Origin: a virus
Reading direction: 5' to 3' (one strand)
IMG/VR virus record: IMGVR_UViG_3300045988_059940
Coordinates: 38,650 to 102,649 of that record
Length of the DNA stretch: 64,000 bases
Made by a program: the position numbers and the translations under genes. The notes under the pieces were generated by a model. That model saw only the letters and a program-made list of their open reading frames with translations. It did not search any database and was not told the origin of the DNA. Below, in pieces: positions 22,057-57,560 of the stretch. The stretch's first letter is position 1. The number at the start of each line of letters is the position of its first letter.

Positions 22057-22082
22057 GTATTATTTTATATTAATTTATATAG

Positions 22083-22170
22083 ACGCCCCAGTAGGAGTCG
22101 AACCTACCCTGTCACCTTCAGAAGATACGCGGTTTTAGAGACCGCCAGTGCCACCGTACACCATAGGGCG
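22083..22170 (-). tRNA. Amber suppressor tRNA, anticodon CUA, class II (long variable arm)
   Basis: Hand fold: CGCCCTA / TG / GTG..CAC D-arm / GCGGT-CTCTAAA-ACCGC / 21-nt variable arm / GTAGG-TTCGACT-CCTAC / TGGGGCG / T73. The anticodon loop is C-U-CUA-A-A. Confidence 0.85.
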
Positions 22171-31709: not shown

Positions 31710-32060
31710 ATGAAAAGATTTATCAAAAGTCTCATATTGCTCCTCATTGGGGCAGTACTTGGCATCATTACACACATAGTAGTGATGTCGTCATGGGGTT
31801 ATAAAATGCTTACCCCATTAGAAATGGCGAACTTTAACACTCTTCCTTATAAAGTAGAGGCGTTGAAAGCCTACAATGCCTACTATAACGCAGTAGAAAA
31901 TCTGCTAGACTCCACAAATCTAGCCGAAGATGATACTATGTTAGAAACCGACGCGGGTTCAAACTATTTGAACAAAAAATGGCGCGTTGATTCTCTAACC
32001 AATCTTGAAAAAGATGAGCTAGCTCCTTATAAACCTATAAAACAGTGTTTCAATGAATAA
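31710..32060 (+). CDS. Membrane-anchored hypothetical protein (116 aa)
   Basis: Track ORF with an N-terminal hydrophobic helix. Confidence 0.6.
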   Translation: MKRFIKSLILLLIGAVLGIITHIVVMSSWGYKMLTPLEMANFNTLPYKVEALKAYNAYYNAVENLLDSTNLAEDDTMLETDAGSNYLNKKWRVDSLTNLEKDELAPYKPIKQCFNE

Positions 32061-32295
32061 GAAATACTATGTTGTATGTAACAGTTTCTTTGGAGTCCCA
32101 AAAAACAAATATACCACATACATTATTACACAAAATAACTGTATAACATTTGCAGTAGCAATGTTAAATAGAAGTGGTATATGGTATGAGAAAGGTACAC
32201 TTAAAACAACAGCAGATGATGATTGGAACTATATATCTCTACATAAAAATAAAGTAGAAATTACCAAGGAACAATGGCTAAGAATATTTAAATAA
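32053..32295 (+). CDS. Hypothetical protein (80 aa)
   Basis: Track ORF that overlaps its upstream neighbour. Confidence 0.55.
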   Translation: MNKKYYVVCNSFFGVPKNKYTTYIITQNNCITFAVAMLNRSGIWYEKGTLKTTADDDWNYISLHKNKVEITKEQWLRIFK

Positions 32296-32352
32296 GGATT
32301 TATTTTTACCATATAAAATTTGAAAGATTGGAGACAGATATTAAAAACCTTA

Positions 32353-32385
32353 ATACCACGATTCGTGAGAACCGTGGTATTTTTA
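32353..32385 (+). terminator. Rho-independent terminator
   Basis: ATACCACG-loop-CGTGGTAT followed by TTTTT. Confidence 0.7.
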
Positions 32386-32395
32386 AAGCATTACC

Positions 32396-32700
32396 TAATC
32401 CAGCCACACCACAGTGACAGTCCTAAGCCTGTTAAATGGAGAAGGGGTAATTGTAAACAACTCTAAATTGAATATGGGTAATGAGCCTACGCCCCGTTTA
32501 GATAGTTTACAGCTCACCTAACGAGCAGCTCACTCAAAGTATATGTGGAATACTGAGAGTAAAAGAGGCGGCCGATAACCAAATCCGAGTTTATATATTT
32601 AGAAAAGCTTTATCAGCAAAACGAACATTATTGTGCACAATAATGTTTATGTGTAGTTTAGTCCAACAATATGTTTCTGCTCTGGAAGTTTTTACACATT
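32396..32700 (+). ncRNA. Structured element A (copy 1 of a roughly 300-nt family)
   Basis: It shares with element B, in the same order, TAATC(C/T)AGCCA, then GTCCTAAGCC, then GAGAAGGGG(G)TAA, then the hairpin TCATAGGTATTATGA. There is no ORF. Confidence 0.4.
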
Positions 32701-32773
32701 TCTCCCTTAGCTCAATCTAGTCAGAGCATCATAGGTATTATGAAAGATTCTGGTGCAAATCCAGAAGGGAGAA
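32701..32773 (+). ncRNA. tRNA-like element with a shortened (15-nt) anticodon arm
   Basis: The acceptor (TCTCCCT/AGGGAGA) is perfect, and the D-arm (GCTC/GAGC) and T-arm (TCTGG-TGCAAAT-CCAGA) are present. The anticodon arm is TCATA-GGTAT-TATGA, with a 5-nt loop, or 4 bp plus AGGTATT. Confidence 0.5.
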
Positions 32774-32814
32774 CGAACGACGTTTTTAAATTTTGCATAA
32801 GAAAAAGGATTATG

Positions 32815-32945
32815 TTTCGCTAAGTAACCTGTGAAGGCGAAAGAAATAGGAATTGATACGAAATTTCGCTGAGTAATCTGCAAAGATGAAAAGATTACGG
32901 AATTTGGAAAGCGTAAATCTGTGAAGACAAGCGCTTTTGTTTTTA
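32815..32945 (+). repeat. Three tandem hairpins with related loop sequences
   Basis: The stems are TTTCGC...GCGAAA, AAATTTCG..GTAATCT...AGATTAC..CGGAATTT and AAGCG...CGCTT followed by a T-run. The loops carry CCTGTGAAG, TCTGCAAAG and TCTGTGAAG. Confidence 0.5.
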
Positions 32946-32954
32946 CGTTTATCT

Positions 32955-33253
32955 TAATCTAGCCAGTCCCAATGTCGGTCCTAAGCCCGAAATGCGTTCA
33001 TTACGTATAATAGAGAAGGGGGTAAACGCACACCAAAAATGGCGTAATTAACCAAGGTGTGTCTCTCAGTCCAGACGTAAGAGAGTAATCCGCTCATAGT
33101 GGGAATATGAGTGAAAAAATACAATTAAGTAAGTAGTTGTAGAAAGAATTAAAATAAGTGCTTACTCACAAAACCGAAAATAATGTGTTTGGGTTTATCG
33201 TAGCGCGCAAAGAAGCGGATTTCAGAACACATAATCGTCATAGGTATTATGAC
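32955..33253 (+). ncRNA. Structured element B (copy 2 of the family)
   Basis: It has the same ordered motifs as element A (32955, 32978, 33012, hairpin 33237-33253) plus many local helices such as CACACC/GGTGTG, CTCTC/GAGAG and CTCATA/TATGAG. Confidence 0.4.
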
Positions 33254-33861
33254 AATCTTTCTCTCTTAGTTTAAATAATAAAACATCTATAAGATAGGAA
33301 ATATTGAAACACCTATTAATAGAAGATATTGGCGTAAATCCAATAGAGAGAACTATTTTATTCAAATATAGCAGTAACTATTATACCAAAAACTTAATAA
33401 CTTTCCAAGTCATTGAGGACACCAGTTTCTTACACCCAGTAAGTTTTAGGTGTAAAATGCAATTCAAGACACTAATCACGTCTAGAATCCATCTTTGTTT
33501 GAATTGATTACTCAAACGGAGAAATACCCGTAAAACGGAGCTCAACTACAAAATACGCTCGTAGTTGCTGAGTATAGGTAGAATTGTGTTTAGTAATTGA
33601 GTACGAGGATACGAAGTTACGTGACACTCTGGAAAGACAGAGAGTATGCTTAATTGCGCAAGTAAGTATACTAGCACTATCGTATAACATATAGATTACG
33701 CTCCGTGCTGTCGGAGAAATGTAGGCTTATTACCTACTAGTGCACTAATTGTTGTCAGCCCCTGTGTGAATAATAGTAACACTTATAGGAACTGTCTGGT
33801 GTGGTCACGAAAGTGGCAATTTAATCATAGCTTAATTAAATCCTGCTATGGGGTAAATATT

Positions 33862-34317
33862 ATGGCAATTAAATGTTTTAAACATGAAAACAATTCTAAG
33901 GCTTACATTGACAGTAAACACATCTGCTATGTAAGAGAATGGTCAGACGGAGAAACAGAAATAGCCACAGTAGATGGAGGTTCAACCTATGTGAAACAAA
34001 GTGTAGAGTCTGTTGTAAGTTGGTGGAAGAAACAACAAGAAACGGACGTAAAAGAGCCTAAGTTCAAAGAGGTTGACGATGTTTATACAATTAGCTTGGC
34101 TAACATAAACAATAGAAGGTATCACGTTGTGGAGGCGCTCAAAGAAGTGCTTAACTTTCACTTAGATGAAAAAAGAAGTTTAGGTGAAAGCAGCAGACTA
34201 ACCGTACTTATAACAAGAAACAAAGTAGAAGCTATGGAGGTATGGGCAAAACTAAAAGCAAGATTGTTCTGTGTCGGTGTCAATGTAATTCTTGAAATAG
34301 ATTCAGTAAGAGAATAG
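33862..34317 (+). CDS. Protein with a ribosomal bL12 (L7/L12) C-terminal-domain-like module
   Basis: The segment ...RYHVVEALKEVLNFHLDEKRSL...KVEAMEVWAKLKARL..GVNVILE matches the bL12 CTD pattern. The track ORF starts at GTG 33766, but ATG 33862 is preferred. The terminal codon is TAG. Confidence 0.45.
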   Translation: MAIKCFKHENNSKAYIDSKHICYVREWSDGETEIATVDGGSTYVKQSVESVVSWWKKQQETDVKEPKFKEVDDVYTISLANINNRRYHVVEALKEVLNFHLDEKRSLGESSRLTVLITRNKVEAMEVWAKLKARLFCVGVNVILEIDSVRE

Positions 34318-38103: not shown

Positions 38104-38286
38104 ACAAAAGACTTTTAATGTGGCCAAAGACAGTTGCAAGCCTGTAAACACAGAGCAAAAAGTCCATTTTACTTATTTAATTCAATTTTAAATGTTTAAC
38201 GTTATTATCTTTAATAAGCAAACAGAATGCCAGTATTAGCGAATACTTTTGAAGTATAGTGCTTGTGAAAGTATTATACTTTTTAT

Positions 38287-38373
38287 GCCTCCATGTTGTA
38301 ACTAGGTAGCCAAGGTAGACTTAAAATCTACTGAACAGTAATGTTCGTATGGGTTCGAATCCCATTGGAGGTA
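38287..38373 (+). tRNA. tRNA-Leu (UAA), class II
   Basis: GCCTCCA / GTAGA-CTTAAAA-TCTAC / variable arm TGAACAGTAATGTTCGT / ATGGG-TTCGAAT-CCCAT / TGGAGGT-A. Confidence 0.9.
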
Positions 38374-38446
38374 CTACGGTTTTTCCAAGTTTCCATAAAA
38401 CTGGATATTAAATATTTAATAAAAACTTTCAAAAATTATCAAAATT

Positions 38447-38878
38447 ATGAAACATTTATTTAGTGCAGTAATAGCATTTATTTTAATCGTTGCTGCATTG
38501 TGTGGAATTATGAGCCTGACTTCTTGTCGAGGTGAATCGCCACAAGAAAAACAAAAAGAGTTTGCAAAACAGTATGAACTGTATGCAAACCCAGAGTTCT
38601 CTTCTTTTGAAGAAGCACTCGACTATCAAGCTGCTGACATTAAGCAGTTTAGAGAGGACTCTGTATTTCGATGTATACCCGAAGAGTCATTGGAAAAAGT
38701 TATCATCGTATTACAGAACACTGGTGCCAAACTGTCAAAAAGTACAATTGCCGAACAATACTTAGAAGGCAAGAAGATATTTGACAACCTCGAACCGAAG
38801 ATAGAACACAAACAAGTCCAAGAGGAGATTGACAGTATCGCATCGTTACAACTAACAACAACTTCAAAAGATGAATAG
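38447..38878 (+). CDS. Lipoprotein (143 aa)
   Basis: The signal peptide carries the lipobox LTSC, and the start context is ATTATCAAAATTATG. The terminal codon is TAG. Confidence 0.6.
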   Translation: MKHLFSAVIAFILIVAALCGIMSLTSCRGESPQEKQKEFAKQYELYANPEFSSFEEALDYQAADIKQFREDSVFRCIPEESLEKVIIVLQNTGAKLSKSTIAEQYLEGKKIFDNLEPKIEHKQVQEEIDSIASLQLTTTSKDE

Positions 38879-56989: not shown

Positions 56990-57433
56990 CAACATGCAGT
57001 CTGGTGTAATTAACCCAAGTTAGAATGTGTACAATTCGATGCGGGTGGAGTATGAAAAGAAAATAAGTAGAAGTAGAAAAACTCGCGAATAAGTATATTT
57101 TAAAAGTTTTCAAAGTAATATCTTGCAGACCATCTATGAGGATGGAGGTTGGAGATAACAAGTTTATCTACTGCATTATGGGGGTATATGGCTTTGATTT
57201 TAGACGGAAGATATGTAAGCATGTAGAGCTTGTAACAGCTCTTAAATATAGTTACAATAAAATTAACCGACAACGTTATTTTGTCAATTGCAGCTTAATT
57301 GAATAATAGTAAATTTGGCGCACATTACACAGAACCACTCAAAGTAACTGTATATGTAATGTAATTATTTGGGATTCAAAATGTTTATTCATAATTTTAA
57401 ACATGTAGAAAGCATATAATAACTCTGAAAGAC

Positions 57434-57458
57434 GTGGGTTCGAATCCCACTACCTCCA
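57434..57458 (+). ncRNA. Orphan T-arm plus 3' acceptor strand (tRNA 3' half-like)
   Basis: GTGGG-TTCGAAT-CCCAC-TACCTCC-A. The only candidate 5' partner (GGAGGTT) lies about 290 nt upstream at 57144. Confidence 0.35.
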
Positions 57459-57560
57459 CAAGGCCATTCTTTTGCGTTTTAAGCGCTTAATACAGCTCTC
57501 TAACACATTTCATCACCTCCCAGTGTTGAGTGGCTTAGAACAAAAAAGAATGGCTAATTT

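Follow-up and report, generated by a model that had tools for sequence, protein, structure and literature searches.

The DNA analysed here is a 64,000-nucleotide (nt) stretch of IMG/VR virus record IMGVR_UViG_3300045988_059940 (positions 38,650 to 102,649), referred to below as the window, and all coordinates are those of the window unless another phage is named. Between 32.35 and 33.86 kb it carries a modular non-coding RNA island of about 1.5 kb, which belongs to a Suoliviridae-like crAss phage and lies on the plus strand together with the small genes that flank it. The island combines type-P1 twister ribozymes, structured RNA bodies and tRNA-like cloverleaves. We propose a processing model in which the twisters would set the 5′ ends and tRNA-type processing the 3′ ends, so that defined RNAs would be released; judged from the sequence, this model seems to us evenly balanced between right and wrong. 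A first-pass annotation of the region 32396-33253, made from the letters and a list of reading frames, had described a structured non-coding RNA region with two related units and a tRNA-like element. That description is supported, and we extend it with a tRNA-like element for the second copy, a third unit consisting of a body and a tRNA-like element, and a RAGATH-12 motif at the 3′ end of the interval.

The crAss-like assignment follows the DNA polymerase, which is 71% identical to that of cr131_1 and cr130_1 and 62% identical to that of Bohxovirus. We read the region 31800-34300 directly and scanned 32000-34100 permissively against Rfam, listing matches to E ≤ 10. A scan of the whole window at gathering thresholds returned tRNAs, a transfer-messenger RNA (tmRNA) and RAGATH-12. 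Related loci were drawn from IMG/VR (L001-L006) and through homologues of the 116-residue gene at 31710-32060 (L136-L146). The parts that concern us are the following.

32352-32386, plus strand: 13-bp hairpin with a GUGA tetraloop, then U5; terminator-like, about 5 nt before twister A
32390-32451, plus strand: twister A, type P1 (RF03160 match 32392-32449, 46.2 bits, E = 1.5e-8)
32452-32700, plus strand: body A, structured RNA of about 250 nt with several hairpins; no Rfam matches
32701-32773, plus strand: tRNA-like A, cloverleaf at minimum free energy, z = −3.3
32774-32944, plus strand: linker with three hairpins, GNRA-capped mini-helices
32946-33028, plus strand: twister B, type P1 (RF03160 match 32951-33023, 32.2 bits, E = 1.5e-4)
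33029-33236, plus strand: body B, structured RNA of about 210 nt; fold z = −2.8
33237-33253, plus strand: hairpin GUCAUA-GGUAU-UAUGAC, with the same sequence as the anticodon arm of tRNA-like A
33259-33352, plus strand: tRNA-like B, cloverleaf at minimum free energy, z = −3.0; its anticodon arm is a 34-nt stem-loop
33383-33461, plus strand: M4, 79 nt, very conserved across crAss-like phage families
33462-33743, plus strand: unit C, a structured body of about 211 nt (33462-33672, fold z = −2.8) and tRNA-like C
33674-33743, plus strand: tRNA-like C, cloverleaf at minimum free energy, z = −2.2; 6-nt anticodon loop
33750-33855, plus strand: RAGATH-12 (Rfam match to RF03149 at 33774-33855, 89 bits against a gathering cut-off of 75)
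38110-38165, plus strand: third twister, type P1 (RF03160, 35.6 bits, E = 5e-4)

The order within the island runs from the hairpin at 32352-32386 through unit A (to about 32944), unit B (32946-33352), M4 and unit C to RAGATH-12 and the ATG of the next gene at 33862. As had been noted before, the interval holds no credible open reading frame (ORF) and no host gene: the longest stop-to-stop frame has 83 codons in the standard code, 105 with TAG read as sense and 88 with TGA read as sense. Hidden ORFs opened by TAG or TGA recoding were considered, and none was found.

The first-pass annotation had reported two diverged copies of one element, A and B, that share motifs in a fixed order. The motifs lie where it placed them. 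The first is TAATCCAGCCA at 32396-32406 in copy A and TAATCTAGCCA at 32955-32965 in copy B. The second, GTCCTAAGCC, follows at 32420-32429 and 32978-32987 (24 and 23 nt past the first), and the GAGAAGGGG(G)TAA-type motif is present as GAGAAGGGGTAA at 32439-32450 and as GAGAAGGGGGTAA at 33013-33025. These three motifs correspond to the twister segments P1-UAA-P2-GCC, P4 loop and P2′-GARGG-P1′, and TAATCYAGCC, GTCCTAAGCC and GAGAAGGGG together form the catalytic core of the type-P1 twisters A and B. In both copies the match to RF03160 spans the model from end to end. The scores of A and B are nevertheless below the cut-off of the family, and the fold was therefore tested directly. In twister A, P1 is formed by 32390-95/32446-51 and P2 by 32399-402/32437-40, P3 is short, P4 is ACA/UGU, and the pseudoknot T1 pairs C32422, C32423 and U32424 with A32443, G32444 and G32445. 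Twister B has a 9-bp P1 (32946-54/33020-28) and an extra P5-like hairpin. Pairing is complete in A, in B and in the third twister (four of four pairs in P2, three of three in P4 and in T1, with 3-9 bp in P1), the helices follow the order P1, P2, P4, and the UAA, the GCC, the GUCCNAAGCC loop and the GARGG are all present. The second pseudoknot, T2, which joins the loop to the 5′ GCC (GC/GC), is invariant.

The annotation had also recommended aligning homologues in search of covariation, and related phages do carry compensatory changes, in the twisters as well as in body A. Two departures of the twister core from the consensus, C to U in the loop and G to A in the 3′ strand, concern the two partners of a single T1 pair. 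P2 changes from UCCA/UGGA to ACUA/UAGU in L001, and a C-G pair of P3 becomes U-A in the group of L005. In twister B of L136 and L138, GGUCCUAAG is replaced by GGUUCUAAG (C to U) alongside GAAGGGGG by GAAGAGGG (G to A), which preserves T1. Orthologues of the third twister (L115, L139) have compensatory changes in P1, P2, P4 and T1. The T1 versions CCU/AGG, UCU/AGA, UGC/GCA (that of the third twister) and UAC/GUA all pair, the family consensus being CCC/GGG, and a fifth, GGC/GCC, was seen by eye in a weak twister of cr6_1. Compensatory changes across related phages in P1, P2, P3, P4 and T1 support the twister fold, and we consider all three twisters genuine on this comparative evidence. Self-cleavage is predicted at U32396/A32397 in A, U32955/A32956 in B and U38116/A38117 in the third.

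A resemblance of some of these strings to group I intron core segments had been suggested earlier, and could mean that the interval holds fragments of a group I intron or of another large known ribozyme. The likeness of GUCCUAAG and GGGGUAA to group I strings is superficial, and nothing more speaks for this reading. The strings are the conserved core of the type-P1 twister, which accounts for the motifs wholly; there are no exons and no host gene. The Rfam comparison that the annotation had called for gave no group I intron (Intron_gpI), group II intron, RNase P, GOLLD, ROOL, HEARO or Y RNA match at E ≤ 10 over 32000-34100, and no RAGATH-15 match either, whereas the same kind of scan detected an RF00028 group I intron in cr128_1 (86 bits). 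We regard the intron reading as having practically no chance of being correct.

Compared with RF03160 (Roth et al. 2014), the twisters share the order P1-UAA-P2-GCC-(P3)-P4 loop GUCCNAAGCC-P2′-GARGG-P1′, the double pseudoknot, the optional P3 and P5, and a location near phage genes and beside a RAGATH motif. They differ in that T1 has a U-A pair (or U-A plus U-A) in place of consensus C-G, in scoring below the cut-off, and in being coupled to a downstream body and a tRNA-like element. The coupling is repeated at the third twister, which is preceded by a hairpin and followed by a structured leader and a cloverleaf, in this case a genuine tRNA-Leu. All three twisters of the window are preceded by a stable hairpin, and all three are followed on the same strand by a cloverleaf within 120-310 nt. 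The leader between the third twister and its tRNA-Leu(UAA) (38287-38374) is about 120 nt long, looks structured and contains a CUUGUGAAAG GNRA hairpin.

The earlier description of 32701-32773 as a well-formed tRNA-like element holds, since the cloverleaf is its minimum-free-energy fold. It consists of a 7-bp acceptor stem, a UA linker, a 4-bp D stem, a 5-bp anticodon stem, a 5-nt variable loop, a 5-bp T stem and a 7-nt T loop; only 5 nt (GGUAU) make up the 'anticodon' loop, and CCA is not part of the encoded sequence. The terminal hairpin that the two copies share, the 15-mer TCATAGGTATTATGA, lies at 32729-32743 and 33238-33252, 333 and 283 nt from the start of the first motif in each copy, as had been reported. 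It occurs exactly twice in the 64-kb window, with a chance expectation of 0.02 (one mismatch allowed). In copy B, however, it does not stand alone as had been claimed, for a second cloverleaf begins at 33259, just past the end of the region annotated, and the hairpin at 33237-33253 duplicates the anticodon arm of tRNA-like A.

A covariance model built from A-type tRNA-like elements only (R1) recovers tRNA-like B with 38.2 bits (E = 6.4e-7), the best non-self match in the window, and the tRNA-like element of L144 at E = 1.3e-7; real tRNAs score weaker (tRNA-Arg, 28.7 bits). Elements A and B correspond to each other, their acceptor, D and T stems differing by compensatory changes. An acceptor pair of tRNA-like A is C-G in the window and A-U in L142, the unit-A element of L145 has a different anticodon stem and a 4-nt loop, and the alternative bodies of L144 and L145 each have their own cloverleaf at minimum free energy. 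The cloverleaf, the 7-bp acceptor, the 2-nt linker and the D, anticodon and T arms are those of a tRNA; the 7-nt anticodon loop with U33 and a purine at 37 is absent from A, B and C. None of the three is called by ARAGORN or matches an Rfam tRNA at E ≤ 10. Because their anticodon loops have 4-6 nt or the arm is extended, the elements are unable to decode, and A, B and C are tRNA-like elements and not tRNAs.

Between twister and cloverleaf lie the bodies. Covariation in unit A was evaluated in an alignment of eight sequences, with 82 pairs scored over the twister, body A and the tRNA-like element. Pairing is possible in 95.7% of the cells, compared with 36-52% when the partners are slid, both sides have changed at 16 pairs, compared with 0-5 in the slid versions, and the covariation score was reached by none of 500 shuffles. 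Ten of the 16 pairs with changes on both sides fall into helices 7, 11 and 13, which lie inside body A. Body B is 96% conserved in six relatives, and this leaves little covariation to score. The similarity of copies A and B as a whole far exceeds chance, as the annotation had supposed: the local alignment has z = 8.9, with none of 300 shuffles as high, and B is recovered at E = 6.6e-6 by a profile made from the first 59 columns of unit A. The notion of two diverged copies is upheld for the architecture and for both ends of the units; for the bodies, homology is undemonstrated. Both bodies present a hairpin with a GUGG(G)AA loop, UCA(G)CAAAAC (also written UCACAAAAC) and GUUUA(G)UC in the same order, but their alignment reaches only z = 2.8, nhmmer finds no match between them at E ≤ 10, and a covariance model of the body A core hits body B at the right position with 7 bits and E = 0.57. 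In view of these weak results, we do not claim that the bodies are homologous.

The same parts could be viewed in another way, with the twisters serving only as insulators or stability switches of the flanking mRNAs, the cloverleaves as decayed tRNA genes and the bodies as functionless spacer or leader. The position of the third twister upstream of a real tRNA-Leu suits this reading, as do the absence of decoding loops from the tRNA-like elements and an unrelated twister in L133 that simply lies between two ORFs, and mRNA processing has been proposed for bacterial twisters in reviews (PMC6765202). On the other side, the loops of the cloverleaves drift but their stems are kept by compensatory changes (between A, B, L142, L144 and L145), which argues for selection on shape and not for decay. 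The covarying helices in body A likewise do not suit a functionless spacer, nor does the 96% conservation of body B in six phages that differ by about 20% in unit A. We therefore hold the insulator reading to be unlikely.

Among the relatives the modules are shuffled as follows.

L141: all window modules
L136 and L138: without unit C
L005 and L142: without tRNA-like B and unit C
L139: unit B, without unit A
L001: unit A, M4 and tRNA-like C
L144 and L145: other bodies

The boundaries of the modules are sharp, giving loci with A only, with B only, with A and B without tRNA-like B, or with alternative bodies and a tRNA-like element of their own. The deletion variant of L005, L142 and L139 has its left breakpoint inside the hairpin 33237-33253, at 33240/33241. 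Unit C, too, is present or absent as a module, and L001 retains only 33673-33749 of it.

Whole units that are present or absent between phages of 80-93% identity, with sharp boundaries and with alternative bodies in the same slots, are also what would be expected of selfish mobile cassettes, similar to retrozymes or short interspersed elements (SINEs), moving from one crAss-like genome to another. In that case the life cycle of the element would involve both its twister and its tRNA-like part, for instance through a circular RNA intermediate ligated by RtcB. The tandem twisters would indeed free a 559-nt RNA (32397-32955) with the ends of an RtcB substrate, and ligation of such ends is the principle of the synthetic Tornado system. 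However, phages of the L001 type lack the second twister, no reverse transcriptase, transposase or homing endonuclease is found nearby (the flanking proteins have no Pfam or PHROG matches), and the units always occupy the same locus in the same orientation, with no target-site duplications seen. Pattern searches of IMG/VR and JGI data found the units in this phage lineage only: when IMG/VR was scanned with patterns for the twister variant, for the T arm and for the 3′ half of the tRNA-like element, all matches came from the same two phage types or were due to chance, and a scan of a single JGI metagenome gave one extra, unrelated twister, which is intercistronic. Mobility of this kind is in our view quite improbable.

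Hairpins of a distinctive type punctuate the island. The one at 32352-32386 was reported among the minus-strand terminator-like sites, and its plus-strand reading with the U5 tail was taken directly from the sequence. Its stem covaries in relatives (ACCACG/CGUGGU compared with ACUACG/uAGUAG), and similar hairpins precede the third twister and the unrelated twister of L133. The linker after tRNA-like A holds the mini-helices CCUGUGAAGG (32828-37), UCUGCAAAGA (32877-86) and UCUGUGAAGA (32918-27), and its last hairpin (32908-32937 plus a U-tract) is terminator-like. Here, too, stems covary, with CCUGUGAAGG replaced by UCUGCGAAGA and AAGCG/CGCUU by AAGUG/CACUU or CCACA/UGUGG, and the loop motif, with slightly changed flanks, reappears in a terminator-like hairpin of cr6_1. 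The three GNRA hairpins were also considered as ToxI-like antitoxin repeats, which we rejected because their spacing is irregular (49 and 41 nt). Terminator-like hairpins of this unusual design, in which a covarying outer stem surrounds a conserved AAUCUGUGAAGAC or UUCGUGAGAA mini-helix with a GUGA cap and is followed by a U-tract, recur across crAss-like phages; examples are found at 32352-32381 and 32908-32937 of the window, at about 3198-3226 of L009 and at about 2230-2265 of L144.

The processing model that we favour starts from the twisters. Cleavage by a twister leaves a 5′-OH on the downstream product and a 2′,3′-cyclic phosphate on the upstream one, and in type P1 the cut lies close to the 5′ end of the ribozyme. 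Accordingly, self-cleavage of the two twisters of the island would fall close to their own 5′ ends, at U32396/A32397 and U32955/A32956. The upstream RNA would be detached, its cyclic phosphate lying behind a stable, protective 3′ hairpin, and the downstream RNA would gain a defined 5′-OH end. RNase P cuts on the 5′ side of cloverleaf structures. In the island, the tRNA-like cloverleaf would be recognised by host RNase P on its 5′ side and by RNase Z or exonucleases on its 3′ side, and this tRNA-type processing would set the 3′ end of the body and free a small tRNA-shaped RNA. One transcript would in this way yield several discrete, stable RNAs, with the bodies as putative functional products. 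Unit C, with the third body and tRNA-like element, follows M4, and RAGATH-12 forms the leader of the next gene. As a guess, the released RNAs might act in trans in takeover or counter-defence.

Several observations weigh against this model. None of the three twisters attains the RF03160 gathering cut-off of 67.2 bits (46.2 for A, 32.2 for B, 35.6 for the third), a shortfall that plausibly stems in part from the U-A change in T1, the short P3 and the inserted P5, and the twister of L144 looks degenerate, with P2 unpaired and a score of 26 bits. The nucleotides of the tRNA elbow are missing as well. Read from the sequence, the D loops have no GG (no G18-G19), and the T loops read UGCAAAU in A, CGUAAAU in B and CUUAUUA in C, in comparison with T54 Ψ55 C56; position 55 is a G in tRNA-like A, and B and C deviate otherwise. 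With such loops, recognition by RNase P is not assured. In three relatives body B has no tRNA-like element and adjoins M4 directly, so that a tRNA-like 3′ end is not obligatory, and in other crAss phages no cloverleaf is detectable after the twisters that lie downstream of M4. Finally, unit A closes with a terminator-like hairpin and U-tract (32908-32944), and a second such hairpin stands before twister A; if termination there were efficient, the units would not be co-transcribed as proposed.

RAGATH-12 stops 6 nt short of the ATG that starts the next gene and is found in all related loci and in Bohxovirus. The gap to the start codon is 6-8 nt wherever the junction was read (the window, L008, L138, L139, L142, L144 and L145), and about 25 nt upstream of the RAGATH-12 model (UUGUUGUCAGCCCCUNUGUGAAUAA) are conserved too. 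The genes after it differ between loci, with products of 151, 59, 173, 123 and 66 amino acids. From its sequence context, RAGATH-12 seems to behave like a portable translation-initiation leader. It might be argued further that the gene at 33862 has a single long regulatory 5′ leader comprising the entire 1.5 kb, in which the ribozymes tune the level of the mRNA. The constant distance of 6-8 nt to the start codon fits this idea, and everything lies on the strand of the gene. Yet the gene behind RAGATH-12 varies, and the upstream units vary independently of it; twister cleavage would split units A and B from that mRNA, and unit A ends in a terminator-like hairpin. A single leader appears very improbable to us on these grounds.

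M4 consists of a conserved 5′ segment (AAAAACUUAAUAACUUUCCAAGUCAUUGAGGACACCAGUUU), a variable hairpin closed by CUUAN/NUAAG and a conserved 3′ segment (UUUUAGGUGUAAAAUGC). The hairpin has 15 nt in the window and up to 125 nt or more elsewhere. Over a stretch of 45 nt, M4 shares 100% of its positions with cr128_1 and 88-91% with another 14 phage records, and 30 distinct variants were found in IMG/VR, in which the fifth pair of the hairpin is C-G, U-A, G-C or A-U. There is one copy in the window and one place per phage record, and further copies lie at 3001-3133 of L007, at 3016-3130 of L009 and in L147-L182. In other phages, twisters and tRNAs lie downstream of M4 on the same strand; no twisters, tRNAs or RAGATH-12 were found within 1.8 kb upstream of M4 in the other phages scanned. 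M4 has no Rfam match. A hammerhead, a hepatitis delta virus (HDV)/theta-like or a hairpin ribozyme was considered and dismissed, as the invariant positions do not fit in a by-eye comparison of the cores. Host-derived sequence was likewise rejected, M4 being absent from bacterial genomes apart from one contig of a metagenome-assembled genome (MAG). As far as its sequence allows a judgement, the element may act as a leader or a processing signal, or represent a new ribozyme, and it may merit separate study.

A known parallel is provided by the theta (minimal HDV-like) ribozymes of gut phages, which adjoin the 3′ ends of tRNAs (Kienbeck et al. 2024, PMC10879173). There, too, a small self-cleaving ribozyme class in gut phages is physically coupled to tRNA genes, and it has been proposed to aid the maturation of tRNA ends by trimming the 3′ trailer from within ±5 nt of the tRNA. 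In contrast, the window has a different ribozyme class, placed 120-310 nt upstream of the cloverleaf, and of its three partners two are tRNA-like elements that do not decode. In the same comparison, the phage of the window also has a suppressor tRNA(CUA).

A second parallel is offered by Bohxovirus (L008, PV686213.1), in which RAGATH-15 (226 bits, 290 nt) at 2203-2562 is directly followed by an atypical tRNA, called tRNA-??? with a 4-base anticodon by ARAGORN and scoring 40 bits with Rfam tRNA. Behind it come a homologue of the 116-residue gene, recognised by eye in the L008 sequence with no protein comparison, and RAGATH-12. The arrangement of RAGATH-15 (RF03150) and RAGATH-12 (RF03149; Weinberg et al. 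2017) thus occurs in the same phage family and has the same layout of a large RNA and an odd cloverleaf. It differs in that no twister precedes RAGATH-15 and in that the window bodies have no RAGATH-15 match at E ≤ 10.

Cloverleaves act as cleavage signals in MALAT1/mascRNA, in mitochondrial tRNA punctuation and among the stable RNAs of the phage T4 tRNA cluster. These systems are alike in that an upstream non-coding RNA receives its 3′ end through RNase P, a step that is predicted for the island, and they have no 5′ ribozyme, unlike the units described here. We know of no 3′-end formation of this type in crAss-like phages. Engineered cassettes, such as ribozyme-guide RNA (gRNA)-ribozyme constructs, tRNA-gRNA arrays and Tornado, excise a cargo with exact ends from a longer transcript. 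They follow the same logic of a cargo flanked by ribozyme or tRNA, but are synthetic, whereas the arrangement in the island is natural.

The island adds new twisters to a ribozyme class that is already known, and the RAGATH-12 motif is likewise known. According to reviews, it has not been determined why certain genes near phage genes are accompanied by twisters and hammerheads, the functions of non-cleaving RNAs beside twisters are unknown, and the role of bacterial and phage twisters and of nearby RAGATH RNAs has been open since 2014-2017 (PMC6765202). We found no report of twisters coupled to tRNA-like elements in phages, or of twisters in Crassvirales, and the cassette of twister, body and non-decoding cloverleaf, together with its modular shuffling, therefore appears to be new, although it is assembled from known parts.

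With this locus, an abundant group of human-gut phages provides an arrangement that is defined and can be tested. Should the processing model be true, it would link twisters to the maturation of tRNAs and tRNA-like elements, complementing the 3′-side action of theta ribozymes, identify new stable phage RNAs, and supply natural parts for excising RNAs with exact ends. A bolder reading, which we consider rather unlikely, is that the island represents a class of phage RNA genes not described so far, in which natural ribozyme-cargo-tRNA units cut out exact-ended structured RNAs of 200-300 nt, with the cargos and the tRNA-shaped by-products acting in trans during infection. These RNAs may be, for example, decoys for host defence nucleases that target tRNAs, or scaffolds, and for M4 a role as an additional processing element or as a ribozyme of a new class is conceivable. 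If this were true, it would provide a first concrete role for bacterial and phage twisters and the RAGATH RNAs that adjoin them.

The genes around the island are small. Neither Pfam nor PHROG assigns a function to the flanking proteins, and the protein encoded after RAGATH-12 has no relatives in IMG/VR. An 80-residue ORF at 32053-32295 on the plus strand overlaps the end of the 116-residue gene and is conserved at the protein level in L001, as judged by eye. It is absent or uncalled in most other relatives, in which the hairpin and the twister follow 30-70 nt after the 116-residue gene. Elsewhere in the window, the phage encodes a suppressor-type tRNA with anticodon CUA at 22082-22170 on the minus strand, which ARAGORN labels Pyl and which scores 42.9 bits with the Rfam tRNA-Sec model, and its own tmRNA at 57180-57461 on the plus strand (95 bits). 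In the light of these two genes, the phage may recode TAG in part of its genome.

Seven related phages carry a near-threshold Rfam match to NsiR1 (31-34 bits, cut-off 39) in the same relative position upstream of the anchor gene.

L005: 2633-2685
L136: 2206-2258
L138: 3067-3119
L139: 1219-1271
L141: 1601-1657
L142: 2720-2772
L145: 1246-1297

These NsiR1-like matches probably represent another small conserved hairpin RNA.

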